Position numbers and translations under genes: made by a program
Notes under the pieces: generated by a model
What the model was told of the DNA's origin: nothing
The model's input: only the letters and a program-made list of their open reading frames with translations
Database searches by the model: none
In this document: piece by piece, positions 3,837 through 31,998 of the stretch
Position numbering within the stretch: position 1 is the stretch's first letter
How the letters are laid out: every line of letters begins with the position of its first letter
Source of the DNA: Nostoc punctiforme PCC 73102
GTDB taxonomy: Bacteria > Cyanobacteriota > Cyanobacteriia > Cyanobacteriales > Nostocaceae
DNA length: 32,000 bases
NCBI RefSeq assembly: GCF_000020025.1
Contig: NC_010628.1
Coordinates: forward strand, 3,540,001-3,572,000
Direction of reading: 5' to 3'

Positions 3837-4403
3837 ATGTCCCTAGCATACGTAATTCTAGGCCTTCTTCAGCAGCAAGAAATGACGGGCTACGACCTCA
3901 AAACGAGCTGCTTTGATCAATGTATTGCCCATTTGTGGCCAGCAGACCAGGCACAAATTTACAGAACTCTCGATAAGCTCGTTGAGCAAGGCTGGATTAC
4001 CTGTACGATTGAGATTCAGCACGATCGCCCCAATCGCAAAGTTTACACTGTGACGGAGCTAGGGAAAGCTGAATTTGCCCAATGGCTTGGGACTCATCAG
4101 CCGTTACCAACTTTACGAGAACCTTTGCTAGTCCAGTTGCATTTTGCAGATCAGTTGTCGAATGAAGCAATCATTCACCTACTGGAGCAACAATTGGGGG
4201 CTCGAAGCAGAAAGCTTGCTGAATGCGAAATCATTGATTTGCCATCACTTGGTGATGAGTCTGCTAACCGTGAGCAGGTAATGCAAAGGCTGGTGCTGGA
4301 GTTGTTAATCAGAAGAGAACAGACTTATATTAATTGGTTGAAGACAGCGATTAAAGTTATCGCTCACCAAAAGCCATATCCATCACATTACCAAATTTTA
4401 TAA
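3837..4403 (+). CDS. PadR family transcriptional regulator
   Basis: N-terminal winged-helix signature typical of PadR (ILGLL...MTGYDL...QIYRTLDKLVEQGWI) followed by a C-terminal helical dimerisation region. Its stop codon abuts the next ATG. Confidence 0.85.
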   Translation: MSLAYVILGLLQQQEMTGYDLKTSCFDQCIAHLWPADQAQIYRTLDKLVEQGWITCTIEIQHDRPNRKVYTVTELGKAEFAQWLGTHQPLPTLREPLLVQLHFADQLSNEAIIHLLEQQLGARSRKLAECEIIDLPSLGDESANREQVMQRLVLELLIRREQTYINWLKTAIKVIAHQKPYPSHYQIL

Positions 4404-5786
4404 ATGCCAACAATAGCAGTAAATCCTTATCTCGATCGCAATTTTGCTCCAATCCGTGAAGAAATCACCACCGACAAATTGCCAGTTATCGGTGAATTAC
4501 CCCTTGATTTATCGGGGATGTTTGTACGGAATGGCCCTAACCCTCAATGGACACCCATCGGTCAATATCACTGGTTTGATGGTGATGGAATGTTACATGG
4601 TGTGCAAATTAGCAACGGCGTAGCCACTTATCGTAACCGCTACGTCCAGACATCTGGATGGAAAAAAGAACGAGAAGCGGGTGAGGCTTTGTGGAGTGGG
4701 CTTTTAGAACCACCGCGAATGGATAATCCCCACGGCCCTCGCAAAAATACTGCCAATACTGCCTTGGTATGGCACGCGGGTCAGATGTTGGCGCTGAACG
4801 AAAGTGGTAAACCTCACGCCATCAAGCTTCCTGAATTGGAAACCATTGGCGAGTATAGCTACAATGGGAAGCTAATCTCTGCCTTCACAGCTCATCCCAA
4901 GGTAGACCCGGTGACGGGCGAGATGATCTTCTTTGGCTACTCTGTATTTACGCCACCATACCTGCAATATAGTGTTGTCTCAGCACAAGGCGAACTTTTG
5001 CGGACAGTGCCAATTGACCTGTCTATAGGAGTGATGATGCACGATTTCGCCATCACTGAAAACTACACCATTTTCATGGATTTGCCGTTGACTTTTAGCG
5101 CCGAGCGATCGCAACGAGGAGAACCTGTGATGATGTTTGAGCGCGATCGCCCCAGTCGTTTTGGAATTGTACCGCGTCATGGTGACAACAGTAATATCCG
5201 ATGGTTTGAGAGCCCCTCTTGCTACGTCTTCCATACCCTCAACGCTTACGAAGATGGAGATGAAGTAGTGCTTATCGCCTGTCGTATGAGTTCTACTACT
5301 GTGTTGATTTCTGATGATTCCCAACCCGACCCAGAAGGAAACATCCCGCGTTTGTATCGCTGGCGATTTAACCTCAGCACAGGGACAGTGCGTGAGGAAA
5401 TGTTGGACGATGTAACTTCAGAATTTCCCCGCATCAACGAAAATCTATTGGGGCGGCAAACCCGATATGGCTACACTAACAAAATTGCAAATAGTCCCGT
5501 ACCATTATTTGAAGGTATAATTAAGTACGATTTCAGTAGTGGAAAGTCACAAACCCACAAATTCGGACAGGGACGCTATGGTAGTGAAGCTGTGTTTGCG
5601 CCGCGTCCTGGTGCAATTGCTGAGGATGATGGCTGGCTTGTGACTTTCGTTCATGATGAGAATTCAAATACTTCAGAATTAGTAGTGGTAAATGCTCAAG
5701 ATGTAACTGCTGAACCTGTAGCGCGGGTGATAATTCCTCAACGAGTGCCTTATGGATTTCATGGTACTTGGGTTGCACAGGAATAG
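4404..5786 (+). CDS. Carotenoid/apocarotenoid cleavage oxygenase (RPE65/CCO family)
   Basis: 460-aa ORF carrying the four conserved iron-ligand His contexts of the CCO family (FTAHPKVDP, MMHDFAIT, YVFHTLNAY, YGFHGTW). The N-terminal NFAP motif is also typical of the family. Confidence 0.9.
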   Translation: MPTIAVNPYLDRNFAPIREEITTDKLPVIGELPLDLSGMFVRNGPNPQWTPIGQYHWFDGDGMLHGVQISNGVATYRNRYVQTSGWKKEREAGEALWSGLLEPPRMDNPHGPRKNTANTALVWHAGQMLALNESGKPHAIKLPELETIGEYSYNGKLISAFTAHPKVDPVTGEMIFFGYSVFTPPYLQYSVVSAQGELLRTVPIDLSIGVMMHDFAITENYTIFMDLPLTFSAERSQRGEPVMMFERDRPSRFGIVPRHGDNSNIRWFESPSCYVFHTLNAYEDGDEVVLIACRMSSTTVLISDDSQPDPEGNIPRLYRWRFNLSTGTVREEMLDDVTSEFPRINENLLGRQTRYGYTNKIANSPVPLFEGIIKYDFSSGKSQTHKFGQGRYGSEAVFAPRPGAIAEDDGWLVTFVHDENSNTSELVVVNAQDVTAEPVARVIIPQRVPYGFHGTWVAQE

Positions 5787-5823
5787 CTGGGCGGTTGAAC
5801 AAGAGGCAAGGGAGCAGGGTGTA

Positions 5824-5837
5824 GGGGGTCTGCCCCC
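5824..5837. terminator. GC hairpin between convergent genes
   Basis: GGGGG-TCTG-CCCCC sits in the 66-bp gap between the convergent oxygenase and CAP-domain genes. Confidence 0.4.
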
Positions 5838-5852
5838 ATTTCCTAACTCAAA

Positions 5853-6557
5853 TTATTTTTCCCTATAACCCCCAGCGTAGTCAATTACGCAGATTGTTCT
5901 ATATGATTTGTGAGTTCCATAAGCAACGCCAGACACTTTAAAAGCGCCGTTAAATATATTTTTTCTATGGCCGCGATCGCGCACACCATCATCAATAATT
6001 AATTGCATGACGATATCTTGGGCAGTGTTTGGGCCATAGCTAATATTTTCGCCAGCCGTTGTTTGCCATGCACCATAGCGGTTGATGCGAGTAAAAGGGT
6101 TGCTACCATCGCTACCATCATGACCTGTAACACCTCTTGGCCCTTGGTCTTTAACATGGTCTTTTGCTCCTAAAGACATACCTTTAGAAGCACTTAAAGC
6201 TCCTACAGGACGTGCAGATTTCAAAAATGCGATCGCTTCATCGACTGCTTTGACTCCTTCTTGAGTTCGCAAATAGGTATTGTTAAAAATTTTGACTCGG
6301 TTCCCTTCAAAGCGCTTCCTATAGTTTTCCAGAATCGGGAGATATGACTTGGGATTTGTTCGTACCTTATTGGTTTCAACAATTACCTGTTGTTCAAGTG
6401 GTGAAAGGTAACTCGCCTTTGCTAATAAAGTTGGACTGGTTGGTTGAACTACTGCTGGGTTAGAGTTTGCCACAGATGGACTAGATTGAAATAGTTGATT
6501 TGAGCAACCGAATATTAGGGTAACTGGCAAAAGTACCCAAAGTTTAATGCGATGCAT
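5853..6557 (-). CDS. CAP/SCP (PR-1-like, YkwD-type) domain lipoprotein
   Basis: Signal peptide with a lipobox-like LIFGC. The C-terminal CAP-domain motifs (NRYGAW...GENISYG, GHRKNIF) are typical of bacterial SCP/YkwD proteins. Confidence 0.8.
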
Positions 6558-7102
6558 TCATTACCTCACAATTTTTTTATGGATTAATTTAGTGAATTAG
6601 GAAAAATAATAGTTTTCAACACACAGAGAAGTTTGTAAACGCTTCTTTATTCAAAATTTTAGAAGCGGCTTGTTGTCAGACATCAGAATTTATATCAGTT
6701 CCCTAAAAAGAACGAAAATGAGTTTATCGAGAGTTATAGATAACGCTGTGATGGTCTTTGTTCCTTGAGTGTTAAAAAGGATTACTTAATACTTGTTGTA
6801 ACCTATCTAATACTCAAACGTAAACCACAAAAAATGTTTTTACTTGATTACGCCTGTTTTTAACTACAATAATTTAGAACCCTTATCAAATATAACGCAA
6901 ACGAAAACTTTGCATATTTGCGTTTGCGAAAAAAACGCAGAGTTTATATCGTATCTGCCTAAACAAGTGTTATTGCGATCGCTTTTTCTCAGTGTAGGGA
7001 AACAAGCCCGAAAAAACCTTGCGATGGCGCAAGCGCCCGCCGTAGGCGATCGCTAATTTTACTCGCAATTAACTAATGACGTGTGATTTACCAGATATGA
7101 TA

Positions 7103-8230
7103 TTACACTTTGACAAACCAACGTTGCCGATACATCAGAACACCAACACCCCACCACAACAACACAGTGACTATGGCAAACAACAGGGAACCATTCAGAA
7201 CTCCCGCCCAAGATGCGAAAAAATTCTGGTAAATCCAATTGTAGGTACTGGGAGCGTCTTTAGCTGTGCCGATAGTGGTTTTCACTAAAATTTTAATCAA
7301 CAAAACGGATGGAACGAAAAGTGCGATCGCATTTAAGCCCATAATTTCAAAAGGTTTACTCCAGCGACGATTCAGCCGGACTTCGATGAGTTCATAACAA
7401 GCTGCTAGCAAAATTAAAGCCCAACCGCTACTAAAGACTACATAAGAACTTGTCCACAGCTTTTTGTTGATGGGAAATGTCCACCCCCACGCCCAACCAA
7501 TAATTAAACAGCCAACTCCAAATAATCCTAACCCGATACTTGTACGTGATTGTACAGGTTGGCTGCGTATCCATTGACCAGTGAAGTAGCCAGCTAGAAC
7601 GCTTACTATCGCGGGAATAGTACTGAACAGTCCCTCTGGATCTCCCATAAATTTGAAACCATCACCTTTATATAGATGTGCTTTGGGAATAATCATCCGG
7701 TCAATATAAGCGCCCAAATTACCTTCTCGTGTTAGAACTCCCGCGCCATAATCTGGCACTGGTAGATACATCATCATTAGCCAGTAGCCGATGAGTATTA
7801 CTGCTGCGAGTATCCATTGACCTTTGCGCGGAAGGTTGAGAACTATCAAGGAAGCCAACAGATAGGTAATGCTGATGCGCTGCAATACTCCCATAATGCG
7901 GATGCTACTCAAATCAAAAGTCCAAACACCTTGATTCCAAAAGCCATTTAGTAACAATCCCAAGGCAAACAGAATAGCGGCGCGGCGTAAGATGCGCCAG
8001 TAAATAGCTGAGGTTGGTTTGTTATCTTCGGTGTACTTTGACAGCGAGAAAGTCATCGCTACACCAACAATAAAGAGAAAGAAAGGGAATACCAAATCAG
8101 TTGGCGTGCAACCGTGCCAATCGGCGTGGGCTAAGGGAGGATATATATTATCTGCGACTCCCGCCATATTGACGAGAATCATAGCAGCGATCGTAATGCC
8201 GCGAAAAACATCCAGTGAAGTCAGGCGCAT
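7103..8230 (-). CDS. Polytopic membrane acyltransferase, heparan-alpha-glucosaminide N-acetyltransferase-like (DUF1624/DUF5009)
   Basis: The N-terminus RLTSLDVFRGITIAAMILVN is the hallmark start of this family. About 10 hydrophobic segments follow. Confidence 0.75.
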   Translation of the reverse strand: MRLTSLDVFRGITIAAMILVNMAGVADNIYPPLAHADWHGCTPTDLVFPFFLFIVGVAMTFSLSKYTEDNKPTSAIYWRILRRAAILFALGLLLNGFWNQGVWTFDLSSIRIMGVLQRISITYLLASLIVLNLPRKGQWILAAVILIGYWLMMMYLPVPDYGAGVLTREGNLGAYIDRMIIPKAHLYKGDGFKFMGDPEGLFSTIPAIVSVLAGYFTGQWIRSQPVQSRTSIGLGLFGVGCLIIGWAWGWTFPINKKLWTSSYVVFSSGWALILLAACYELIEVRLNRRWSKPFEIMGLNAIALFVPSVLLIKILVKTTIGTAKDAPSTYNWIYQNFFASWAGVLNGSLLFAIVTVLLWWGVGVLMYRQRWFVKV

Positions 8231-8348
8231 AAGGGGAATTTTTTCTTTGATGAGTATCTAAGCTACCCCGCCTGATGCAGCTAATCAAGCAAAATTTATA
8301 TACTCGGATACAAGGTAAAATTTTGTTAAGTAATTACCACCACTTGTT

Positions 8349-8807
8349 ATGCCAATCAAAGTTGGAGATACCGCTCCTAATTTCACTCTACCTGCTCAAA
8401 ACGGTTCAACAGTTAGCCTCCAAGATTTTCGCGGCACAAAAGCTGTTGTCCTATATTTTTATCCCAAGGATGACACACCCGGATGTACGGCTGAATCCTG
8501 CGCCTTTCGCGATCAATATGAAGTGTTTAAAAGTGTTGGTGCTGAAGTTGTCGGCGTGAGTGCTGACTCTAGCGAATCTCACCAAAAATTTGCTGCGAAA
8601 TATAATCTACCTTTTACCCTGTTAACTGACAAAGGCGACCAAGTACGGAAGCTATATGGCGCAACAGCAGCCTTTGGCTTATTCCCTGGTCGCGTTACTT
8701 ACGTCATTGACCAACAGGGAGTTGTGCAATACGTGTTTGATTCAATGTTGAACTTTAAAGGTCATGTTGAGGAAGCATTGAAAACTTTGCAACAGATTGC
8801 AAAATAG
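8349..8807 (+). CDS. bcp: Peroxiredoxin Q / bacterioferritin comigratory protein
   Basis: 152 aa with the peroxidatic and resolving Cys context [16 protein letters not shown], typical of BCP/PrxQ. Confidence 0.9.
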
Positions 8808-8810
8808 GAT

Positions 8811-8836
8811 ATTGGGCATTGGGCATTGGGCATTGG
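8811..8836. repeat. Tandem heptamer repeat (ATTGGGC x3.7), STRR-like
   Basis: attgggc attgggc attgggc attgg lies directly after the bcp stop. A C-rich partial complement (8858-8878) follows and could pair with it. Confidence 0.8.
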
Positions 8837-8876
8837 TTATTTCTCCCTCATCTCCCTATGCCCCATACCCCATTCC

Positions 8877-9521
8877 CTATTTAGAATGCGACTTTTCCGG
8901 CATGGCAATATTAGTGTGGCTTGACTTGCCATTCTTGCCGTTAGTATGACCGTTACCATTGCGGGGATGAATCACACCATAACCGCCGTGGTTGCGTTCG
9001 TAAATTACATTAATCTCTCCAGTTTCAGAATTGCGGAACATATAAAAGTCGTGTCCCACAAGTTGCAGTTGTTCCAGGGCTTCTGCAAGGGTCATCGGTG
9101 GCATGGAAAAGTATTTGGTGCGGACGACTTCGTTGGGCAATTCAGGAGTGCGATCGCCAATTAAATCTGGGACTACCGACTCTGCAACAACTACTTCTGT
9201 TGGTTGGGACTGAGTTTTCTGATCTTGACGGCGTTCTTTATATTTCCGCAGTTGACGGGCAATTTTATCTGCTACTAAGTCAATGCTGGCATATAGATTT
9301 TCGCTACTTTCCTCGGCACGGATAACGCTGCCATTAGCGTAAATAGTTACTTCAGCTGCTTGTCTAGTATTAATCCGAGGATTACGGGCTACGCTAAGAT
9401 GCACATCCACTTCATTTGTGATGCTCTGAAAGTGACTAGCTGCTTTTTCAATCTTTTGATGTACATATTCCCGAATCGCATCGGTGATTTCAATATTTTT
9501 GCTGTGGATGACAAGCTTCAT
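8877..9521 (-). CDS. hpf: Long ribosome hibernation promoting factor (LrtA-type HPF)
   Basis: N-terminal S30AE/sigma-54-modulation fold ([20 protein letters not shown]...). The C-terminal dimerisation domain ([26 protein letters not shown]) is characteristic of long HPF. Confidence 0.9.
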
Positions 9522-10142
9522 GTAAACTCTCCCACTGAATATTTGATGTGTGAATTTGCTTTGTATGAAAAGAAATTGCGGTAAAGTCTATTACTCCCGC
9601 CAAAACAAATTGTGAACTGTTTCTATCTACTGCTGGTAAGCTATTTTTAAGCTTACTGCATCTAAGTTTTTGCTCATTAATACCCTTAATTTTCCTCCTC
9701 ATCTCTGCGCTGATATCCAATTGGATTTCCACATAGAACTATTTGGCGAGGAAATTTGAGCGGTAGCTCTCGTAACTGTCTTCTCTATTAAAACAACGCT
9801 TACAGAACTGTTAATAGTTGCTCCTTCTGTGTCCGATTGAGGTTTGCTCGCTGTCGATCAACAACACGAGATTTGTAGAAGTTGATCTTGCTTTAATAAT
9901 GTGCAAACAAGATTATTAGAGTCATCAGCCAGTGCATCGTTCTTAATTGTCTTGGCATGATGCTTATTGCAGAGAATTCCTCCTAAAACCTATTGAGGTT
10001 GTATATTCAAACTAGCACTTTGTATTTTCTAATGCATGTTCCCTTGACTTTCCTTTAAAATCCTTTGCAAATCTTGACACTTTTGGGCTTCAATCCTGTA
10101 AATCGCAATATATTTTGTTCCTAATACCAGTTGATTTTTGGC

Positions 10143-17039: not shown

Positions 17040-17672
17040 GTGGGAAGTCGCATCAATTCACGCCAAATGCATCTGAGATTTTCTCAAGATATAAAGTCTC
17101 TGTTACAACGCCTAGCTGAACAACCGCTTACTCTAGGTGATGTTTTGGCAGAAACCTCAGAACGAGGGTTCAGCCTGGTGATTACATTATTAGTTTTGCC
17201 CTTTTTATTTCCTATGCCACCTGGATTAACTGGCCCTTTTGGTGGTGCTTGTTTACTGTTGTCAGCGCAAATGGTTTTAGGGAGGCGATCGCCTTGGCTG
17301 CCGAAAAGAATCGCTAACTACAAATTTCCTCGTCCCTTCGCCCAGTTATTGTTGCAAAATTTGGGACGTCTTACCAAAGTTTTACAGAAAATAGCCCGTC
17401 CCCGATTGGCAAAAATAGCCCATAATCCTTTGATTTGGCGAATTAATGGGTTTTGTATCTCTTTATTAACAGTATTACTAATATTACCAATTCCGTTTAC
17501 CAATCCTATCCCTACTATAGGTATTTTACTTTTGACTGTTGCCACCATCGAATCTGACGGTTTATTAATTTGTATCAGTTACGGCATTACTGTTTTAATT
17601 ACCTTGCTGTTTGGATTTTTGGGTTATGCAGTATGGTTAGCTCCCAGTTTACTACCATCTATCTTTAAATAA
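17040..17672 (+). CDS. Exopolysaccharide synthesis ExoD family membrane protein
   Basis: ExoD-like block LGDVLAETSERGFSLVITLLVLPFLFPMPPGL...GRRSPWLPKR plus C-terminal TM helices. The track start is GTG 17040; an alternative ATG lies at 17067. Confidence 0.8.
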   Translation: MGSRINSRQMHLRFSQDIKSLLQRLAEQPLTLGDVLAETSERGFSLVITLLVLPFLFPMPPGLTGPFGGACLLLSAQMVLGRRSPWLPKRIANYKFPRPFAQLLLQNLGRLTKVLQKIARPRLAKIAHNPLIWRINGFCISLLTVLLILPIPFTNPIPTIGILLLTVATIESDGLLICISYGITVLITLLFGFLGYAVWLAPSLLPSIFK

Positions 17673-17725
17673 TAAAAGCCCCCAGCTTTAGGCTAAGGGC
17701 TGTAATTTATTAGGGTGCATCTACC
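17671..17725 (-). ncRNA. Candidate small RNA, array unit 1 (5' end is a guess)
   Basis: Minus-strand hairpin AGCCCUUAGC-CUAAA-GCUGGGGGCU (17677-17701) followed by UUUUAUU. The conserved segment GAUGCACC.UAAUAAAUUAC lies upstream. A TAATAA -10-like box and CCCGGA sit further upstream. Confidence 0.45.
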
Positions 17726-17814
17726 ATTTATTAATCCGCTTTATTGATTGCTATATCCGGGTAAATTATGTTTTTTGACAGATTTATTTGATCGACACAT
17801 TAAAAACTATAAGT

Positions 17815-17871
17815 AATAAAAAAGCCCATAGCGTTAAGCTAAGGGCTGTAATTTATTAAGGTGCATCTACC
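17815..17871 (-). ncRNA. Candidate small RNA, array unit 2 (5' end is a guess)
   Basis: Minus-strand hairpin AGCCCUUAGC-UUAAC-GCUAUGGGCU (17823-17847) followed by UUUUUUAUU. The upstream conserved blocks match unit 1. Confidence 0.45.
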
Positions 17872-17958
17872 ATTTATTAATCCGCTTTATTAATTGCTAT
17901 ATCCGGGTAAATTAGGTTTTTTAACAGATTTATTTTATTTTAAAATTATAAATTTAAT

Positions 17959-22826: not shown

Positions 22827-25028
22827 CTAGCGTAGCGCTCTGAGGGTAACCGACCGTTGCAACTGAGCTAAAGCGCGGTTGTAATCCAAAATTGCTGTGA
22901 CTCGATTACCTTCAGCCCTTGTGAGGTCGTTTTCAGAGTTAATAACATCAGTTTGAGTTCCTACACCAGCTTGGAATCGCAAACGCGCTAAACGTAGAGC
23001 TTCTCTAGCTTGTTCTAAAGCGGTGTTAGAGGTTTGAACATTTTCCAAACTAGATTGCTGGGTAGAATAGGCTTGTTCTACCTGAAAGCGAATTTGGTTG
23101 CGCTGTTCAGCAAATTGAGTTTCTGCGATCGCAATATTAACACTAGACTGAGCTGCCCTTGCTCTTGCCGCTCCCCCATCATACAAATTGATGGTTGCTC
23201 TAACTCCCAATGAATAACCATCAGTAACGCTGACACTATCATCGAACTGATCTAATAGGTTGTAACTACCTACCAAACTAACTTGAGGACCCAGTTCTGC
23301 AAGAGCCTGTCTACGCTGTTGTTCGCTGATATTGCGTTGTGCCAACTGCTGTTGTAATTCTGGACGATTTTGAAAAGCCAGCACAATACTTTGTTCTAGC
23401 GTTGGGTTCCAAAGACCAGCTAATTGTACAGGGTCGGCGGCACTAATATTTATTCCCTGCGGCAAACTTATCCGAGTTGCTAATTGACGACGGGAAATTG
23501 CCTGCTGCGATCTAGCATTAGTCAAATCTTGTTGGGCATTTGCTAAATTCACCTGCGATCGTAACACATCGAACCGCGTACCAACCCCAGCTCGCTCTAA
23601 AGCTTCGGCATCACGCAAACTAGCTTCGGAGTTTTGCACAGCCGACTGAGCAATACGTACTTGTTCATCCGCTTGTTGCAGATTGTAGTAATCAGTGGCA
23701 ACATTCAAACGAATTGTCTCAGACTGAGTTTCTACAGCCAATTCATTGAAACGTACCTGTTCTTCAGCTGCTCTGATACTAGCTTGCACTCTCCCAGAAG
23801 TGTAGATGTTATATGATAGCTGTGCTTGACCGGAAAAAGATGTACCAGCTTCATCTGGCGATGAGATACCCGTCTGTTGTTCTTGGAGTTTCGACGAGAG
23901 CTGACTACTGGCAGACTGACTACGAGTAATATCAGCGCTAATTCCCAGAGTTGGCAATAAAGCAGCTTGTGCCTCACGTAGAGCCGCTCGATTGCGTTCT
24001 AGCTCCAAAAGAGACACCTGTAAATCCCGATTGTTACGCCGTGCTAGCTCTAGAGCTTGTGCCAAAGTAATCGGCTGATTTCCCTGAAGTCTCACTTCCT
24101 CCGGTTTGGTAGGAAATTGCAAGGGATTTGAGCTAGGAATCAAGTTCCCGGGAATTTGTACCGGCCCTGATGGCGCAGGAGTTATGGTTCTCGGCACAGT
24201 GGAAGGTTGCACTGGGCCTGATGGTGCAGGAGTTACGGTTCCTGGTACAGTGGGAACTGGTGTCGAATTTGCCGGAATCGAGGTATCATTCTGAGCAATG
24301 CGGCCAATAGCATTTTGTTGTAAACAGGTGTTTGAAGCCAGTAGCAAAGCCGCGGAAGAATCAGTCTTGCTTTTTCCTGACTCCTTTAGGCATCTTGGCG
24401 CTGACAACAGTTTTGCTGATTCTCCACCTGTAGCTGAAGTTTGTAAAAATGCTTGCAACTCAGTAACAGCATTTTTCCTTTGAACCACTGGCTGCTGTGC
24501 AGAAGACAGTGGGAAAATTTTTCTTTGGACAGAAGAAGGTTTTGCAGTGTAGTTGGGAACTACTATGCTCTCTGATTTCTGCCCAGAAATGCTTGAGTTA
24601 CTCTGTTTTTGGTTATTTTGAGCAGAACGGCTACCATCTAGCTGTTGGGAAGCATTAGAGGTAGGTGTCAAACTGACAAATCTACCTTCATCTTTCTTAA
24701 GTACTTGTTTTATTGGCACAACAGTATTTCCAGCCGTAAATACTGGAATACTGTTATGACTTAAAGGCTTCATACTAAGTTTAGTAAAACCAAAACCAGG
24801 TAGTAGGGTTGTAACACTAACATTTGCACCATGCGGCAATTGCGTATTCATCATATCCACAACCGAGTTTTGACCATAAGTAGAAGTTAAAACACTAGGA
24901 GAAGAAGCCAGCTGTACCCCAGTTAGTTTTACAGTACCAGCCCAAGCAGGCTGAGTTGTTAAAACCGCTGCCGTGACACCAGGCAAGAAGCTATAGAATA
25001 ATTGCTGTCCTTTCACCGCATCCCTCAC
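22827..25028 (-). CDS. TolC-family outer-membrane efflux protein with a long N-terminal extension (HgdD-like)
   Basis: The C-terminal ~430 aa show the duplicated OEP/TolC helical repeat (LTLAQALELARRNNRDLQ..., twice-repeated Q/A/L/R-rich coiled segments). The N-terminal ~300 aa are a signal peptide plus a Ser/Pro/Gln-rich linker. GTG start. Size and position next to kaiC recall Anabaena hgdD. Confidence 0.85.
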   Translation of the reverse strand: MRDAVKGQQLFYSFLPGVTAAVLTTQPAWAGTVKLTGVQLASSPSVLTSTYGQNSVVDMMNTQLPHGANVSVTTLLPGFGFTKLSMKPLSHNSIPVFTAGNTVVPIKQVLKKDEGRFVSLTPTSNASQQLDGSRSAQNNQKQSNSSISGQKSESIVVPNYTAKPSSVQRKIFPLSSAQQPVVQRKNAVTELQAFLQTSATGGESAKLLSAPRCLKESGKSKTDSSAALLLASNTCLQQNAIGRIAQNDTSIPANSTPVPTVPGTVTPAPSGPVQPSTVPRTITPAPSGPVQIPGNLIPSSNPLQFPTKPEEVRLQGNQPITLAQALELARRNNRDLQVSLLELERNRAALREAQAALLPTLGISADITRSQSASSQLSSKLQEQQTGISSPDEAGTSFSGQAQLSYNIYTSGRVQASIRAAEEQVRFNELAVETQSETIRLNVATDYYNLQQADEQVRIAQSAVQNSEASLRDAEALERAGVGTRFDVLRSQVNLANAQQDLTNARSQQAISRRQLATRISLPQGINISAADPVQLAGLWNPTLEQSIVLAFQNRPELQQQLAQRNISEQQRRQALAELGPQVSLVGSYNLLDQFDDSVSVTDGYSLGVRATINLYDGGAARARAAQSSVNIAIAETQFAEQRNQIRFQVEQAYSTQQSSLENVQTSNTALEQAREALRLARLRFQAGVGTQTDVINSENDLTRAEGNRVTAILDYNRALAQLQRSVTLRALR
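24160..24261. repeat. 51-nt (17-aa) tandem duplication inside the TolC-like N-terminal linker
   Basis: It encodes TVPGTVTPAPSGPVQPS / TVPRTITPAPSGPVQIP. The two nucleotide copies are clearly alignable. Confidence 0.7.
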
Positions 25029-25069: not shown

Positions 25070-25125
25070 GAATATAGCACGATACTAAACTTAGGAAAGA
25101 ATATACTACGATACTAAATTTAGGG
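25070..25125. repeat. Two 26-nt direct repeats (period 29) in the kaiC / TolC-like junction
   Basis: GAATATAGCACGATACTAAACTTAGG and GAATATACTACGATACTAAATTTAGG. The second copy overlaps the kaiC stop codon (25120-25122). Confidence 0.6.
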
Positions 25126-26682
25126 TTCGGAACTCTGTTTGTCTTCAAAACGTCTAACAATGCGAGAAAGTTCCGCCTTTTCATCGATACTAACGCGAGT
25201 AGGAGCACCGCTGATAATCCGTTCGTAGTTTCTGAAAGAATCTTTAATATCGGGCCCGTCAGCAGTGATATTATACTCGCGAATGCCCTTATCATGCCAA
25301 GACCCGCGCATTTTAAATACGTTAATTGCCCGCGACATTTCTCCACGAATTTCTACGTACTGTAACATTAGAATTGTATCGGTAATCGTAGAGATATGAG
25401 AGTCAGTAATCGAATGCGCTCCTAGAAATTGGTCAGTTGTGTTGGTAAAGAAACCAGTAATTTCTTCTTGTTTAGCATAACCCGTTACACCAATTACAAA
25501 CTGCCTAAATGCATTATTGCTCACTCCTCTAGCTAATGCTGATAGGGAATCAATGGCAATCCGAGCTGGTTTAAAGACAGCAATTTCTGATTTAATAATT
25601 TGTAAATGGTCTTCTAAACCAGTTGATTCAGGATAGGTACAAATTATTTTTAGTAAACCTTGCTCCTCTAATTCTTCAAAATCAATTCCCCAAGAAGAAG
25701 CATTACGAGATAATTGGGCGCGTGATTCTTCGTAAGCAAATAATATTGCCTGTTCTCCATTCAGGCAGCCATCTTGAATAAACTTACTTACTAACAAGGT
25801 TTTACCAGTACCTGTGGCTCCTGTTGCCAAAATAATAGAATCTTTAAAGAAACCACCACCGCACATTTCATCTAAGATTTTGACACCAGAAGATACCCTG
25901 ATATTAGATGAACGCTGAGTTAAACGCATTGCTCCTAGTGGGAAAATGTTAACTCCTTCATTAGTAATTGTGAAGGGATACTCGCCTTTCATGTGAGTTG
26001 TACCGCGCAATTTGAGAATTTCAACTGTGCGACGGCGGCGTTCTCCTTCTAAAACGTTGCGAACAATTACTACATTATCAGAAACAAATTCTTCCACTCC
26101 AAAAGAAGCAACGGGGCCATATTCTTCACTGCGTTCAGTGGTAATTACGGTGGTGACACTCAGTATTTTGAGACGTGCTACCAACCGAAAAATCTCGCGT
26201 CGTACTACTCCCATTGCTTCGTACTGCTGAAATACTGCTGTCATCGAGTCAATTGAAACTCGTTTAGCTTTGTATTTGCGAATGGCATATTGCAAGCGTT
26301 CAATGAGTGCAGAAAGATCAAAATTTCCAACGATATCTTGACCTTCTGGATCGGGAGATGCATCAAGAATAAATAATTTACCTTCTTCGATTAGGCGCGG
26401 TAAATTCCAACCAAAAACATGGGCGTTTTTAATAATATCGCTGGGTGATTCTTCAAAGGTAACAAATACTCCTGCTTCATCGAAGTAGGTGATACCGTTA
26501 TACAGAAACTGAAGAGACAATAAAGTTTTACCTGTACCTGAAGTGCCACTGACCAAGGTAGTTCTACCAATTGGTAAACCACCATGACTAATATCATCAA
26601 ACCCTTCAATCATCGTGCGAATTTTTTCTACACCCCCATTTTTTGGTGCCTTATTGGGTTCTACTTGCTCGTTTTGACTCAT
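25120..26682 (-). CDS. kaiC: Circadian clock protein KaiC
   Basis: 520 aa with duplicated RecA-like halves. Walker A motifs are GTSGTGKT (CI) and GATGTGKT (CII), with catalytic EE pairs (TFEE, AYEE). The phosphosite context DSHISTITDTILMLQYVEIRGEMSRAINVFKMRGSWHDKGIREY is present. Confidence 0.97.
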   Translation of the reverse strand: MSQNEQVEPNKAPKNGGVEKIRTMIEGFDDISHGGLPIGRTTLVSGTSGTGKTLLSLQFLYNGITYFDEAGVFVTFEESPSDIIKNAHVFGWNLPRLIEEGKLFILDASPDPEGQDIVGNFDLSALIERLQYAIRKYKAKRVSIDSMTAVFQQYEAMGVVRREIFRLVARLKILSVTTVITTERSEEYGPVASFGVEEFVSDNVVIVRNVLEGERRRRTVEILKLRGTTHMKGEYPFTITNEGVNIFPLGAMRLTQRSSNIRVSSGVKILDEMCGGGFFKDSIILATGATGTGKTLLVSKFIQDGCLNGEQAILFAYEESRAQLSRNASSWGIDFEELEEQGLLKIICTYPESTGLEDHLQIIKSEIAVFKPARIAIDSLSALARGVSNNAFRQFVIGVTGYAKQEEITGFFTNTTDQFLGAHSITDSHISTITDTILMLQYVEIRGEMSRAINVFKMRGSWHDKGIREYNITADGPDIKDSFRNYERIISGAPTRVSIDEKAELSRIVRRFEDKQSSEP

Positions 26683-26963: not shown

Positions 26964-27278
26964 TTACTCTTCAAAATCTCCTTCACTCAGTTCTTCATAA
27001 AGCAAATCTAATCCAATCAATACTCTTTCTCGATCTGAAAGATCGCCGATAATTTTGCGAACAGGTGGAGGCAAAATTTTGGATAATGTTGGCGTTGCCA
27101 ATATTTTATCTTCTTCTGCCAGTTGTGGGCTTTTCAATACATCGATCACTTTTAAAGCATAAACACCTTCAAACTCCTGCTCTAAAATATTTTTGAGTGT
27201 TTTCAATGCCCGAACTGAATTAGGGGTATTCCCTGCTACGTAAAGCTTGAGAACGTAGGTTTTTTTGGCTTTAATCAT
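26964..27278 (-). CDS. kaiB: Circadian clock protein KaiB
   Basis: 104 aa with the canonical KaiB start [14 protein letters not shown], then [25 protein letters not shown] and an acidic tail. Confidence 0.95.
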
Positions 27279-27386: not shown

Positions 27387-27722
27387 TTATTTAGAAATCG
27401 AACTCCTATAGACTTCACACAAGTGAGCCAATATATCTATCAACGTCAGGCGGTAATCAAGTAAGGTTTCATTGCTTCTTCCTTCTAATTTTAGCTGGAT
27501 AGAAAATTCTTCAATTACCTCCATGTGAATTTCGATGATTTGGGGCACAGGAATATTAGCATAAAATATAGTATTGATAAATTTATCAATTTTTTCCTTA
27601 AGTGTTTTGTCTGTGGTAAAATAATTTAAAAGTATTAGACTGTAATCTAATTTAAGCTGTCTTAATAATCCTTGCCTTTCGGCTGGATTCATCTCGTTAA
27701 AATGCTGTTGGCTTTTTTGCAT
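27387..27722 (-). CDS. kaiA: Circadian clock protein KaiA, short form (C-terminal KaiC-binding domain only)
   Basis: The last ~100 aa match the KaiA C-terminal domain (IDKFINTIFYANIPVPQIIEIHMEVIEEFSIQLKLEGRSNETLLDYRLTLIDILAHLCEVYR). No N-terminal pseudo-receiver domain is present. The start is ambiguous: ATG 27722, ATG 27692, or the far-upstream ATG 27968 of the 193-aa ORF. Confidence 0.85.
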   Translation of the reverse strand: MQKSQQHFNEMNPAERQGLLRQLKLDYSLILLNYFTTDKTLKEKIDKFINTIFYANIPVPQIIEIHMEVIEEFSIQLKLEGRSNETLLDYRLTLIDILAHLCEVYRSSISK

Positions 27723-28578
27723 CTGGCTAGCAAATACATAGACGTACTTGCTAGTGTATGCCTTACTTGGATTTTGTTGCGGCCAATTTGGTAAATAGTT
27801 TATTGTTGCAGAGGTCGTTGCAGTAACAGGTAAATAGCAAAATTGGGCGACGATCGCATCAATAAATTTCCACACCCAAGAAATCCAACCTTTTTGCTTG
27901 GCTAAGTCAACTAGATTATCTAAACATTTGTTAACATCAGGTCGCAGAATCAATATTGGTAATAACATTTACTCTTTAATCTATCTCCTTGATCGCTTTG
28001 ACCAAGAAACGTGGGCTGATAAGTTTGGCTAACGCTTCTAGGGGAATACTTCTTGATGTCCAGAAAACTAGTGACTTTACCCCAAAATAACGCTCTGTGT
28101 TAACAGATAGTGCAAGAAGGCAGTTCTTGCTGGAGGTGGTAAGTAATAAAGCTTATGCACTAAAGTTAAGCTTTTAGCTTTTTTCAACTGGATATTTATT
28201 TATGCATGCTTATGCTAGCGACTCAACAGCTTAATGCAGCAACTGAGTGTTAAGACTTAGTAAATCTTTGATGATGAGGTATATGTCGCCATAACGAGAC
28301 ACAGTAGCTAATTTATTGTTTGCGTATCTGTAATCTATGTCTATAAATAGATATATTTTTTAATTTTGCTCCTTGATAAGATACTTAAACGAACTTAAAG
28401 GATTGTCGCATTCTAAATCATTATAATTCCTCAAGGTTCTAAAGCGAATCTTTGGGGCCATAATTGTTGTAGCCGTCGCTATCGATCGGGAGTTTAAATA
28501 CCAGTAAGACGCTGGGGAGGCTAGTTGCTATAAATTGGAAACGTCGCCTCTTGGAAAAATGCACTTGTCCACAAGCAA

Positions 28579-31500
28579 GTGTCCGTGAGGGGAAATCCCA
28601 TTCTTTTATTTAATGGCGTTGAAATAACCAGAGTTGCTTATATGAGTCTTCTTAGAGGATATGGCTTCAGGCGAAAAGACCATCAACAGTTGGCAGATGG
28701 AGATGCCGGAGGTTTCCACAGGAAGAATGACCCCCAAAGCCCTATGTTAATGCTAGATTACCCGCTTTCTGACTTTCAAGCAACCGTAGCTAGCTGCCTC
28801 CAGACATCTTCTTTGGCAGTGGTGCTGGAGATTTTTGAGCAAGAGCAGTGCGATCGCTTGGTAGTAGTGAATCAGCAGCAATACCCCATCGGATTGCTGT
28901 ATTCTGCCCGTTTAATCCAAAAATTATTAGCACATAGTGACGATAAAAATCTAAATTTACATCAATCACTCTCTACTTGGGGTCAAGGTCTAATTGAGCC
29001 AATACAAACAATATCAGCCTCTGAGCGTGTAGAGCAATTAAGCTTGCACTTGGGTTATCCACAAGCCGAAAAACATCAGAACTTAGATTTGGCGCTGATT
29101 GACTCTGATGGCCGATATTTGGGTCTGCTGGATAGTTCGCACCTGTTGCGATCGCTGGCTAAGGAACGCATGGCTGGGTTACAAAGCTCAGGCATCCGGA
29201 AGTCGGGCCATGAGCATGAGTATGATACTGATGTACAGCCACCAAATAAAGCCAAATCATTGAGACACCAGCCACTGATACTGTTGCTGGAAAGACTGCC
29301 TTGGCCTTTAATGTTGCAAACGTCTACTGGCGAGGTGTTAGCCCGAAATCCCGCCTGGTGGCAGCAATTAGGAGCCTTAAAAGATCCAGAAGGAGTTAGG
29401 CAACAAGTGGAAGCAATACTTGTCCCTAAGCCCTCCGAAAAATCTGAATATGTCACCCAACGAGCAATCAAAGTTCATCCCAATGGCAGGGAGAATGAAT
29501 ATGGTAGTGAAGAGGAACTGACTCAGCAAGAAGCATCACTAGATGCTGTATACAGTCGCTGCTATTTGGATAGTCAAGTGGGTACTTGTACCTGTGTTGT
29601 GGAAGTGCAAAATGGTCAGGAGCGAATTTGGCAGTTTGCCAAAATTCCTTTAGATAGTCCTGAGTTTAAAGTCATGAGTGCTGAGTCAGAGGTTTTACTC
29701 AGCAATGATTTGTGGTTAGTTTTAGCTACTGATGTAACTGAACAGCAGCAGCTTTGCAAAGAGTTAGCTGCGAAAAATGCCGATTTAATTCAACTAAATC
29801 GGTTGAAGGATGAGTTTTTAGCTTGTATTAGTCATGAACTCAAAACTCCCCTAACTGCCGTTTTAGGATTATCTCGCTTGCTGGTGGATCAGCAGTTGGG
29901 AGAACTTAATGAGCGTCAAGCTCGTTATGCAGGACTAATCCATCAAAGTGGCCGCCACCTGATGAGTGTGGTTAATGACATTTTAGATTTGACCCGAATG
30001 GAAACGGGACAAATGGATTTGACGCTGACACCAGTGAAAATTAGTGCCGTGTGCGATCGCGCCCTATCGGAAGCCAAAGCCATCCACACTCAAACTACTA
30101 AAACGACATCCCAAACTCAAGAAAATGACCGTTCATCTGCTCCCCAATTCTGCCTTTCCATTGAACTAGGCTTAGATGAAATGGTGGCAGATGAGTTGCG
30201 CTTGCGCCAGATGCTAGTACACCTACTTTCCAACGCCTTTAAATTCACTGAAATATCCGGCGAAATTGGGCTGCGGGTAAGTCGTTGGGAAGGATGGATT
30301 GCCTTTACAATTTGGGATACAGGTATTGGCATTCCAGAACACCAGCAACACCTAATTTTTCAAAAATTCCAACAACTAGAAAATCCCCTCACCCGCCAAT
30401 TTGAAGGCACTGGTTTGGGGCTGGTATTAACTCGGGCCTTAGCTCGTCTCCACGGAGGAGATGTCAGCTTCTTGTCTCGTGAAGGGAAAGGTAGCCAGTT
30501 TACACTACTTCTGCCGCCCAGTCCCCCGAAAACAGGCTTTTCGGAGCCAGATATGGTAATCAGAGCAGACGAGAAGACACGACACCAACAGACACGGGAA
30601 AACACCGCAGCCACTCGTCAGCAGATCGTTACGCCTACACAGCATCATCCCGCGAGTTCCCAACGATTGGTCTTAGTAGTCGAGGCTGTAGCCCGATATA
30701 TTGAAGACTTGACCGAAAAACTCAAATCTTTAGGATATCGGGTAGTAATTGCGCGATCGGGGACAGAAGCAGTCGAAAAAGCTCGGCGCTTGCAACCAAT
30801 AGCGATATTTTTGAATCCGTTGCTACCCTTGCTGTCAGGCTGGGATGTGTTGACTTTACTAAAATCTGACACGGCAACCCGTCATATATCTGTAATAGTT
30901 ACCGCAACGGGGGCCGAAAAGGAGAAAGCATTTGCTAACCGAGCCGATGGTTTCTTAAGTTTGCCAGTGGAGCATCAGGTATTGGCACCAGTTCTCGAAA
31001 AATTATGTACTGCCCAAGTAGCTCCGCAGGTAGGGTTGGAAAATAGCGCCATTGTCCCGCCTAAAACCCCACTGCGAATTCTCAGGTTGGTGAATCCCCA
31101 ATTGGAATCGGTTAATCCCCACCCCTCACTTCGAGAACATCGGGTGATTGAAGTAGATGACTTAGATCAAGCAGAACTTTTGGCGCGGGTATGGCAATTT
31201 GATGTCATTTTGCTAGATGTCGAAAGTACCACTGCCCAAATTTATTTGCAACAACTAATCCAGCACCCACGTTTGGCGGCTCTACCATTGGTTACTTGCG
31301 ACGTTGCAACTACCTTAATAGCTTCTAAGATACCAGGGTTATCTGTATTTCCTTACTTAACACCATTTACCAAAGACAACAGCAGTCGCATCGAAAAAAC
31401 AGATGCCTTACTATCAGTACTGCAAATTGCTTCTGGTATTTGCTGCCCTCCTAACATCTTGGTTGTGGATTTGACAATGCTGCGTGATTTCCCACAGGTA

Positions 31501-31998
31501 AGACGTAAGTCAGCTAAGGGTTATCGGACAGCAAAAAATTGCTCAATTAGTAGTGAAACTGCTGAAAGGGGGTCTGAGTGGTTCCAAGCTTTAATTCAGT
31601 ATTTACAAACAGCAGGCTTTAAAGCAGCTATGAGTCCCTGTTGGGCAGAAGTGTTACAACAAATTCGCCACCAAAGCGTTGATTTACTGCTAATTTGTTT
31701 AGGAGAATCCGCTATCCACAAAGATGTGCTAAAAGCCCTGAAAACATTGGGAGATTCACCTGATAAATTACCACCAATTTTGGTACTAAATCAGCGATTA
31801 AATCGCCCAGACACCAATTTTCCGGTTGGGGTAGCTTATAAGGAAATTGACAAGCAGAAAAAGAATAGCTTGGAATCGATAGAGACTGTTGTTGGTGCGA
31901 TCGCTACCCAAATATTACCGCGCTCGATATCAATGGAAGACCTCTTAAACCAGATCAATCAAGCCTTAGCTGTCAATGGTTACAATGGCAAATGTTAA
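28579..31998 (+). CDS. Multidomain sensor histidine kinase: CBS pair, PAS-like, HisKA, HATPase_c, then three degenerate receiver-like domains
   Basis: H-box ISHELKTPL (His419, nt 29833-29835), N-box LLSNAFKFT, G1 WDTGIGI, G2 GTGLGL. The receiver-like fold at aa 696-805 has Asn746 (nt 30814-30816) at the phospho-acceptor position. The start is uncertain: GTG 28579 sits inside a hairpin, and ATG 28642 and 28744 are alternatives. Confidence 0.85.
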   Translation: MSVRGNPILLFNGVEITRVAYMSLLRGYGFRRKDHQQLADGDAGGFHRKNDPQSPMLMLDYPLSDFQATVASCLQTSSLAVVLEIFEQEQCDRLVVVNQQQYPIGLLYSARLIQKLLAHSDDKNLNLHQSLSTWGQGLIEPIQTISASERVEQLSLHLGYPQAEKHQNLDLALIDSDGRYLGLLDSSHLLRSLAKERMAGLQSSGIRKSGHEHEYDTDVQPPNKAKSLRHQPLILLLERLPWPLMLQTSTGEVLARNPAWWQQLGALKDPEGVRQQVEAILVPKPSEKSEYVTQRAIKVHPNGRENEYGSEEELTQQEASLDAVYSRCYLDSQVGTCTCVVEVQNGQERIWQFAKIPLDSPEFKVMSAESEVLLSNDLWLVLATDVTEQQQLCKELAAKNADLIQLNRLKDEFLACISHELKTPLTAVLGLSRLLVDQQLGELNERQARYAGLIHQSGRHLMSVVNDILDLTRMETGQMDLTLTPVKISAVCDRALSEAKAIHTQTTKTTSQTQENDRSSAPQFCLSIELGLDEMVADELRLRQMLVHLLSNAFKFTEISGEIGLRVSRWEGWIAFTIWDTGIGIPEHQQHLIFQKFQQLENPLTRQFEGTGLGLVLTRALARLHGGDVSFLSREGKGSQFTLLLPPSPPKTGFSEPDMVIRADEKTRHQQTRENTAATRQQIVTPTQHHPASSQRLVLVVEAVARYIEDLTEKLKSLGYRVVIARSGTEAVEKARRLQPIAIFLNPLLPLLSGWDVLTLLKSDTATRHISVIVTATGAEKEKAFANRADGFLSLPVEHQVLAPVLEKLCTAQVAPQVGLENSAIVPPKTPLRILRLVNPQLESVNPHPSLREHRVIEVDDLDQAELLARVWQFDVILLDVESTTAQIYLQQLIQHPRLAALPLVTCDVATTLIASKIPGLSVFPYLTPFTKDNSSRIEKTDALLSVLQIASGICCPPNILVVDLTMLRDFPQVRRKSAKGYRTAKNCSISSETAERGSEWFQALIQYLQTAGFKAAMSPCWAEVLQQIRHQSVDLLLICLGESAIHKDVLKALKTLGDSPDKLPPILVLNQRLNRPDTNFPVGVAYKEIDKQKKNSLESIETVVGAIATQILPRSISMEDLLNQINQALAVNGYNGKC

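Follow-up and report, generated by a model that had tools for sequence, protein, structure and literature searches.

A sensor histidine kinase with three receiver-derived modules encoded divergently from kaiABC in Nostoc punctiforme and other cyanobacteria

What is known of the input and output pathways of the cyanobacterial circadian clock is based almost wholly on Synechococcus elongatus (SasA, CikA, RpaA). In filamentous and many other cyanobacteria the Kai architecture differs, and the wiring of clock input and output is poorly known. The closest described systems contain a pseudo-receiver, which according to PMC12632262 is a computationally recognised receiver that misses at least one residue needed for phosphotransfer. 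The pseudo-receiver of CikA (circadian input kinase A) of Synechococcus elongatus binds fold-switched KaiB and restrains autophosphorylation (PMC6378743, PMC12632262). Its contact with KaiB is made through the α1β2α2 face, and it also binds quinone (PMC12632262). The N-terminal pseudo-receiver of KaiA is a quinone-binding, dimer-packing input domain and not the KaiB/KaiC interface (PMC6378743, PMC12632262). In ShkA, a hybrid kinase of Caulobacter crescentus, the pseudo-receiver clamps the dimerization and histidine phosphotransfer (DHp) domain and blocks autophosphorylation until cyclic di-GMP binds (PMC12632262). Here we describe a sensor histidine kinase gene of Nostoc punctiforme PCC 73102 that lies head-to-head with kaiABC and encodes three modules of this kind. 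The gene is located in a stretch of 32,000 nucleotides (contig NC_010628.1, positions 3,540,001 to 3,572,000), referred to as the window, for which a preliminary description had been made from the sequence alone. The genes in question are the following, with positions counted from the first nucleotide of the window.

28579-31998, + strand: sensor histidine kinase, maximal open reading frame (ORF) of 1139 residues with a GTG start
27387-27968, - strand: kaiA, 193-residue form (Pfam KaiA match at residues 83-192, E=1.9e-41)
26964-27278, - strand: kaiB (Pfam KaiB, E=3.5e-30)
25120-26682, - strand: kaiC (Pfam KaiC ATPase, E=3.4e-121, two domains)

Residue numbers refer to the maximal 1139-residue ORF used in the preliminary description. 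The gene product is a cytoplasmic sensor histidine kinase. We consider it about an even chance (probability roughly 0.5) that it is an orphan CikA-like kinase which is genomically coupled to the Kai oscillator and uses its pseudo-receiver tail for regulation or docking. The architectural part of this proposal is near-certain, and the link of the kinase to the clock, for which its genomic position argues, is moderately likely. The very strong association of a CikA/ShkA-like pseudo-receiver kinase with the kai locus appears to have gone unremarked in the open-access literature.

The gene positions bear out the earlier statement that kaiA is the immediate divergent neighbour of the kinase gene, and kaiA, kaiB and kaiC all lie divergently upstream of it. 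The extent to which this arrangement is retained, raised as a question in the preliminary description, could be followed in several samples. The best 80 loci by similarity all belong to the Nostoc clade, and kaiA-kaiB-kaiC lie divergently upstream of the kinase in 78 of the 78 that have enough upstream sequence (Nostoc, Desmonostoc and Komarekiella). Outside this clade, exact-protein look-ups of distant family members gave ten informative loci, 8 of which have the same kai arrangement. These are from a Microcoleaceae-like genome, GCA_002796835, Leptolyngbyaceae CSU_1_4, GCA_965188525, an Alkalinema-like metagenome contig, Leptolyngbya 'hensonii', Calothrix NIES-3974 and an Elainellaceae metagenome-assembled genome (MAG). 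A metagenome scan seeded with a consensus-like family member returned 80 loci at 41-74% identity. Opposite-strand kai genes were found within 0.4-3.3 kb in 62 of the 63 metagenomic loci with at least 1.5 kb of upstream sequence; the sole locus without them had barely enough flank. At a threshold of 70% identity in the kinase tail, single linkage groups the 65 kai-adjacent metagenomic loci into 40 clusters, so they do not represent one lineage that was counted repeatedly. The genes beyond kaiC and those beyond the kinase vary by lineage, and the only conserved junction is that between the kinase and the kai genes. Such behavior, with adjacency kept across distant lineages while the other neighbours vary, is that of a kai-locus gene, and it supports the conclusion that the kinase is genomically tied to kaiABC far beyond the Nostocales.

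A different arrangement is present in two metagenome contigs, L102 and L103, where the kinase has a divergent kaiC as its direct neighbour at a distance of 435 nt (in L103, the kinase at 6230-9700 and kaiC at 4245-5837). Neither kaiA nor kaiB was detectable anywhere in these loci of 16-20 kb.

The C-terminal tail of the kinase is composed of three modules, which the preliminary description had read as three degenerate receiver folds.

30667-31014, + strand: pseudo-receiver 1, residues 697-812 (Pfam Response_reg); codon 30814-30816 encodes N746
31075-31440, + strand: receiver-like module 2, residues 833-954 (AlphaFold2, Foldseek, hhalign and PDB profile)
31453-31974, + strand: receiver-like module 3, residues 959-1132, with insertions in α1 and α4

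Examination with AlphaFold2, Foldseek and profile searches recovered all three folds. Module 1 passes the Pfam gathering score for Response_reg at residues 698-802 (39.4 bits, cut-off 30.2) and is predicted by AlphaFold2 as a (βα)5 unit with a predicted local distance difference test score (pLDDT) of at least 90. When aligned to solved receivers, module 1 has E702-A703 in place of the DD pair, N746 where the acceptor Asp is expected and L795-P796 in place of K-P, and T775 is retained. In an alignment of the query with 98 full-length family representatives, to which all frequencies out of 99 refer, E702 and N746 were each found in 98/99, P796 in 99/99 and L795 in 82/99, with no Lys among the residues listed at the latter position. 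Both comparisons agree with the earlier claim that module 1 is degenerate at the acidic pair, the acceptor and the Lys. The β2-α2 stretch of this module (GYRVxIARSGTEAxEKxRRLQP) is nearly invariant and is the most conserved part of the whole tail; the β3-α3 stretch (NPxLPxLSGWDVLTLLK) is also nearly invariant. Ordinary receivers generally show little conservation in the β2-α2 segment. Its conservation in module 1 fits a protein-protein interface and does not by itself identify the partner; for binding of fold-switched KaiB or the KaiB-KaiC complex, as known from CikA, it would be no more than an indirect hint.

Pfam recognises neither module 2 nor module 3. AlphaFold2 modeling of the whole tail from a 27-sequence alignment gave three consecutive (βα)5 units (mean pLDDT 81.4), and modeling of modules 2 and 3 alone gave the same result (pLDDT 81.7, predicted template-modeling score 0.68). 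In Foldseek searches, PleD, with its receiver and adaptor receiver, leads the matches to the whole tail. For modules 2 and 3 the leading matches are 3LUF and 3MF4 (tandem receivers) and PleD, aligned over both modules, followed by single receivers with target-normalised template-modeling scores of 0.7-0.78 over ~175 columns. The latter were assigned to module 3, because this length fits module 3 with its insertions. A profile of modules 2 and 3 gave 16 weak matches to PDB sequences, of which 13 are receivers aligned in register. CpxR and PhoP match module 3, with C1040 opposite the acceptor Asp, and KdpE matches module 2. With hhalign, modules 2 and 3 each align in register with module 1 at weak scores (E ~1e-3, probability 12-24%) that by themselves would not establish receiver homology.

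The residues at the expected active sites further characterize these two modules. In module 2 the acceptor position is occupied by D880, which is Asp in 55/99 and Glu in 19/99 of the family, the Thr/Ser position by T906 (93/99) and the Lys position by F924-P925; no acidic residue after β1 is conserved in the 99-member alignment. Module 3 has D964 after β1 (84/99) and C1040 at a variable acceptor position (C/Y/H/D/R/S), and no Lys-Pro signature could be read from the alignment. The view that modules 2 and 3 are more degenerate still thus holds insofar as neither has a complete site, but it overlooked that module 2 often retains the acceptor Asp. The modules are recognisable as receivers and miss residues needed for phosphotransfer, as pseudo-receivers do, modules 2 and 3 being recognised only through predicted structure and weak in-register profiles. 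All three modules are receiver-derived, and none of them has a complete phosphotransfer site. The combination of acceptor Asp, acidic pair, Thr/Ser and Lys that supports an internal His-Asp relay in hybrid kinases is incomplete in each.

The catalytic core and the N-terminal region comprise the following elements.

29806-30009, + strand: HisKA (DHp) domain, residues 410-477 (Pfam E=1.3e-17), with the phospho-accepting H419 (codon 29833-29835)
30190-30519, + strand: HATPase_c domain with N, G1 and G2 boxes, residues 538-647 (Pfam E=3.8e-26)
28765-29178, + strand: CBS-pair-like N-terminal region, residues ~63-200 (sub-threshold Pfam CBS)
29266-29754, + strand: PAS-like region, residues ~230-392 (motif level, Pfam silent)
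29824-29826 and 30052-30054, + strand: codons of C416 and C492
29560-29601, + strand: region of C328-341

With a HisKA and a HATPase_c domain that contain the H box and the N, G1 and G2 boxes, the protein is a class I sensor histidine kinase. H419 is invariant (99/99), and so are N552, D580/G582/G584 of the DxGxG motif (580-584) and G610/G612/G614 of the GxGxG motif (610-614), in agreement with the intact kinase core proposed previously. The conserved residues make it very likely that the kinase is enzymatically active. Compared with solved structures, the core is that of a generic HK853-type kinase. Two conserved cysteines, C416 (96/99) and C492 (98/99), flank the phospho-accepting histidine, and the PAS-like region contains a partly conserved cluster C-x8-C-x-C-x-C (C328/C337/C339/341). 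Redox control of the kinase through these conserved cysteines is possible.

The sensory part is less distinct. The Pfam CBS match at residues 71-116 reaches 21.1 bits, where the cut-off is 24, and a similar sub-threshold match was found in 6 of 8 full-length relatives. A second CBS-like motif (ALVD..G.FLGLLD) was read by eye in the family consensus only, and a single-sequence search of the N-terminal 345 residues against the PDB gave one match, the CBS protein PH1780, which was insignificant. The PAS-like region has the consensus stretches LLE.LPLPLMLQT..G.V..QN.AW and LWLVLAQD.TEQQQ and closes with a D-x-TEQQ motif at the transition to the DHp helix. Pfam gives no PAS match in the kinase, and the call is based on these motifs. 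The profile from which the conserved N-terminal residues were read mixed full-length and truncated sequences and served only for that purpose. These features tentatively support the suggestion of a CBS pair followed by a PAS-like domain in the preliminary description, short of proof.

Kinase variants of 725-811 residues that are devoid of the CBS-like N-terminus occur in L085, L087/L088 and L082 (P0352, P0368, P0232). They retain the kinase core, the three-module tail and the adjacency to kaiABC.

The family to which the kinase belongs was delineated by searching 1.84 billion representatives with modules 2 and 3 as the query and clustering at 50% identity. This gave 294 clusters at E<1e-10. 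Among the best 150 of these, 98 have a length of at least 950 residues and are collinear with the query. A further homolog search with a profile of the tail listed mainly truncated proteins. Relatives are encoded in more than 580 species-representative genomes. The shared architecture consists of the CBS-pair-like and PAS-like regions, HisKA, HATPase_c and the three receiver-derived modules, and judged by this collinearity the kinase is an ortholog in a large cyanobacterial family. The names given to family members in databases are generic: 'ATP-binding protein', 'hybrid sensor histidine kinase/response regulator' and 'CBS sensor hybrid histidine kinase'. In the searched literature, which comprised open-access text only, we found no functional statement on the gene and no clock phenotype or mention. 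A recent paper on the diel transcriptome of N. punctiforme discusses CikA-like kinases, and its passages on kaiA, histidine kinases and hybrid kinases do not mention this gene (PMC12691664). The Anabaena PCC 7120 gene all2883, the putative ortholog, appears in open-access text solely in a list of predicted CRP targets.

In view of the above, a mechanism can be proposed for an orphan CikA-like kinase at the kai locus. Since no receiver in the same polypeptide is able to accept phosphate, the substrate would be a stand-alone response regulator encoded elsewhere, which the kinase may phosphorylate or dephosphorylate without an internal His-Asp relay. The genomic surroundings are in line with this. 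No response-regulator gene was found in the window or downstream of the kinase in a Nostoc locus that was examined. By analogy with CikA and ShkA, the pseudo-receiver tail could be a regulatory or docking device, with the β2-α2 and β3-α3 surfaces of module 1 as the likely partner interface. Adenylate or redox state could be fed into the kinase by way of its CBS-like and PAS-like domains and conserved cysteines. Adenylate and redox state are known entrainment cues of the Kai clock. Because the divergent linkage to kaiABC is conserved, the Kai oscillator, or its input and output network, would be the most likely functional partner.

Several observations weigh against this proposal. The link between the kinase and the Kai proteins is inferred from synteny and is circumstantial. 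The match of module 1 to the CikA pseudo-receiver (2J48) has E=0.017, which is worse than that of many ordinary receivers, and the calls of the sensory domains are sub-threshold (CBS) or made at the level of motifs (PAS). Two of the ten informative loci outside the Nostoc clade, a Microcoleaceae MAG (L093) and a metagenome contig (L094), do not have the kai adjacency. The metagenomic sample was obtained by a two-peptide-pattern filter and ranked by similarity to one sequence, and does not sample cyanobacteria at random. In Synechococcus elongatus the model clock presumably runs without such a kinase neighbour. In picocyanobacteria kaiA adjoins rplU (PMC8113500).

If the clock connection is accepted, a further-reaching suggestion can be made, which we put forward tentatively and with less than even confidence. 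The kinase family may represent a fourth widely conserved gene of the kai locus, the tail of which docks on the night complex of KaiB and KaiC or on KaiA, and the CBS/PAS/cysteine sensor of which couples adenylate or redox state to clock input or output. If so, the gene would have escaped notice because Synechococcus elongatus, the model strain, does not have the arrangement. A kinase that is positioned head-to-head with kaiABC in dozens of divergent lineages is in any case a specific and testable candidate for a missing clock component. It is also a clean natural example of three degenerate receivers on one kinase, the acceptor of one of them being replaced by an invariant Asn, and therefore useful for the question of how bacterial pseudo-receivers are switched.

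The form of KaiA encoded next to the kinase also bears on the interpretation. The preliminary description held that KaiA has only its C-terminal domain in this genome. This domain is indeed the sole Pfam match, with no match to KaiA_N in the window KaiA, but the 193-residue protein aligns from its own residue ~15 onward to residues 143-320 of a 322-residue KaiA. The alignment to long KaiAs implies that, besides the linker, it keeps a terminal remnant of the pseudo-receiver, namely the last helix, without the whole fold. Its N-terminal 82 residues are conserved in translation across the 78 Nostoc-clade loci. On the basis of this alignment the window KaiA is to be placed in a class of ~200 residues rather than regarded as a bare C-terminal domain. 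This class was described by Schmelling et al. (PMC5520375), and truncated KaiA is typical of the Nostocales (PMC5520375).

The truncation is not shared by all lineages that have the kinase. Both the KaiA_N and the C-terminal Pfam domains were found in 7 of the 8 kai-adjacent genomes outside the Nostoc clade (five single proteins of 259-322 residues, one of 202 residues and one that is split into two calls). For the 63 kai-adjacent metagenomic loci, the length of kaiA was taken as that of the maximal ORF and is hence approximate: at least 240 residues in ~36, 150-239 in 13 and fewer than 150 in 14. Specific co-occurrence of the kinase with short KaiA, a check proposed in the preliminary description, was thus not observed. 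Since the kinase also stands beside long or KaiA_N-bearing KaiA, it does not replace a pseudo-receiver that KaiA has lost. In long-KaiA lineages, too, module 1 shows its degenerate states without variation, so that the kinase and its pseudo-receivers predate the truncation of KaiA and do not depend on it.

Between kaiA and the kinase lies a conserved region, and candidate start codons of the kinase follow downstream of it.

28360-28530, no strand assigned: conserved non-coding block of 170 nt between kaiA and the kinase (core 28365-28475)
28642, + strand: candidate kinase start M22
28744, + strand: candidate kinase start M56

Across 20 Nostoc-clade loci the block shows at least 95% identity, and it occupies the corresponding position in 23 further Nostocales-type loci, including Calothrix. 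Within it are a direct repeat, ACTTAAAC-GA-ACTTAAAG, a palindrome that is invariant, ATTATAAT, and, ~37 nt downstream, a second CATAATTG box. It looks like a promoter or operator region, shared by or placed between the two divergent genes, and is thus a candidate promoter or operator, possibly for an OmpR-type regulator. Two other explanations of the conservation were rejected. An ORF of 33 residues on the kaiA strand is interrupted by in-frame stops at several positions across loci, and a structured RNA is contradicted by the absence of an Rfam match and by RNAalifold, which predicts zero pairs.

The GTG at 28579 is only the longest possible start of the kinase, and the true start is probably located later. 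An identical database protein (P0001) has 1118 residues, equal to the ORF counted from M22, and distant orthologs from other orders align to the kinase only from residues 56-63 onward. The stretch 28609-28743, between the M22 and M56 starts, shows strong nucleotide conservation in the Nostoc clade and has no counterpart in distant orthologs; a start codon and a conserved leader are both possible.

Elsewhere in the window, two tandem copies of NsiR1, a nitrogen-stress-induced small RNA (Rfam RF02399), are present on the - strand at 17671-17726 and 17816-17872, both above the gathering threshold. The gene that follows kaiC in the window, at 22827-25028 on the - strand, encodes a TolC-like outer-membrane efflux protein (OEP). 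An OEP gene also follows kaiC in Calothrix NIES-3974 (L091:2469-4001), and other lineages have unrelated genes at this position.

Three other explanations can be considered. The first is that the kinase is an ordinary orphan sensor of stress or metabolic state that is unrelated to the clock. Its adjacency to kaiA would then result from a compact divergent regulatory region shared by the two genes or from inertia, and the tail would simply keep the kinase autoinhibited as long as no small ligand is bound, as in ShkA. The promoter-like block that fills the shared intergenic region in Nostocales would be consistent with this, and so would the generic HK853-like core, the searchable literature with neither a clock phenotype nor a mention, and the missing adjacency in L093, L094 and the picocyanobacteria (PMC8113500). 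However, the adjacency survives in ~40 clusters (70% identity) among which all other flanks have been reshuffled, and neutral retention is not expected over so many clusters because the surrounding gene order has been lost. Furthermore, the kinase of L102 and L103 is still beside kaiC though kaiA and kaiB are absent from the locus. We therefore regard a clock-unrelated sensor as unlikely, while giving it more weight than the two explanations that follow.

A second possibility is that module 2 is a functional atypical receiver, in which case phosphate would be transferred from H419 to D880 and the protein would be a true hybrid kinase that feeds a histidine phosphotransfer (Hpt) protein and a regulator. 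The Asp at the acceptor position in just over half of the family (55/99) and the well conserved T906 (93/99) speak for such a relay. However, the acceptor is replaced by E, G, N, S or Q in more than one third of the members. The conserved acidic residues after β1 are missing, therefore there is no metal site, and a Phe takes the place of the conserved Lys in a module to which Pfam is blind. Pfam detected no Hpt domain in the kinase, and no Hpt gene was found nearby in the window or in a Nostoc locus. Such a relay is very improbable.

The third and weakest explanation, advanced in the preliminary description, is that the kinase donates a pseudo-receiver to the oscillator specifically where KaiA has lost its own, for which it can be said that the window KaiA is without a complete pseudo-receiver next to a kinase with three and that truncated KaiA is typical of Nostocales (PMC5520375), but which is largely refuted, and scarcely credible, because the same kinase with invariant N746 is found beside a KaiA_N-bearing KaiA in 7/8 non-Nostoc genomes and a kaiA frame of at least 240 residues in ~36/63 metagenomic loci, and because the pseudo-receiver is not the part of KaiA that binds KaiB and KaiC.

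An orphan CikA-like kinase coupled to the Kai oscillator thus remains the reading that we favor, and it can be compared with what is known of other systems. The best NCBIfam match is HrmK (NF038297), a hormogonium hybrid kinase of Nostoc, which aligns at residues 384-808 with 279.3 bits and spans the kinase core and the first receiver. Membership of the HrmK equivalog was rejected since this score is far below the cut-off of 725 bits, and the model of 607 positions has no counterpart of the CBS/PAS-like N-terminus or of modules 2 and 3. Structurally, the tail is matched best by PleD and the tandem-receiver regulators (1W25, 3LUF, 3MF4), in which a receiver is packed on a degenerate adaptor receiver. 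As response regulators these carry one phosphorylatable receiver and a GGDEF output, whereas the kinase tail forms the C-terminus of the protein and is degenerate in all modules. The N-terminal pseudo-receiver of KaiA, encoded at the same locus, similarly has a receiver fold without phosphotransfer residues. In contrast to the tail, it is a quinone-binding input domain and not a kinase appendage, and the kinase has no match to Pfam KaiA_N.

The closest likeness is to the kinases that carry a pseudo-receiver. ShkA also consists of a kinase core followed by a pseudo-receiver, which makes it a plausible model for gating of the kinase by module 1. It differs in that it ends in a genuine phosphate-accepting receiver and has no link to a clock, whereas the modules of the kinase described here do not include a complete active site. 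The statement in the preliminary description that pseudo-receivers are the modules of clock proteins that interact with KaiB and KaiC is correct for CikA, which binds fold-switched KaiB, but not for the N-terminal domain of KaiA (PMC6378743, PMC12632262). A separate gene is annotated as cikA in N. punctiforme, Npun_F1000 (PMC12691664). CikA has a GAF N-terminus and one pseudo-receiver; the kinase has CBS-like and PAS-like regions and three modules, and a Pfam search with E up to 1 found no GAF domain in it. CikA is clock-linked, whereas the putative clock link of the kinase is genomic. Like CikA, which acts on a separate regulator (RpaA), the kinase has no phosphate-accepting receiver of its own, and in both proteins a C-terminal pseudo-receiver that lacks the acceptor Asp follows the HisKA/HATPase_c core.

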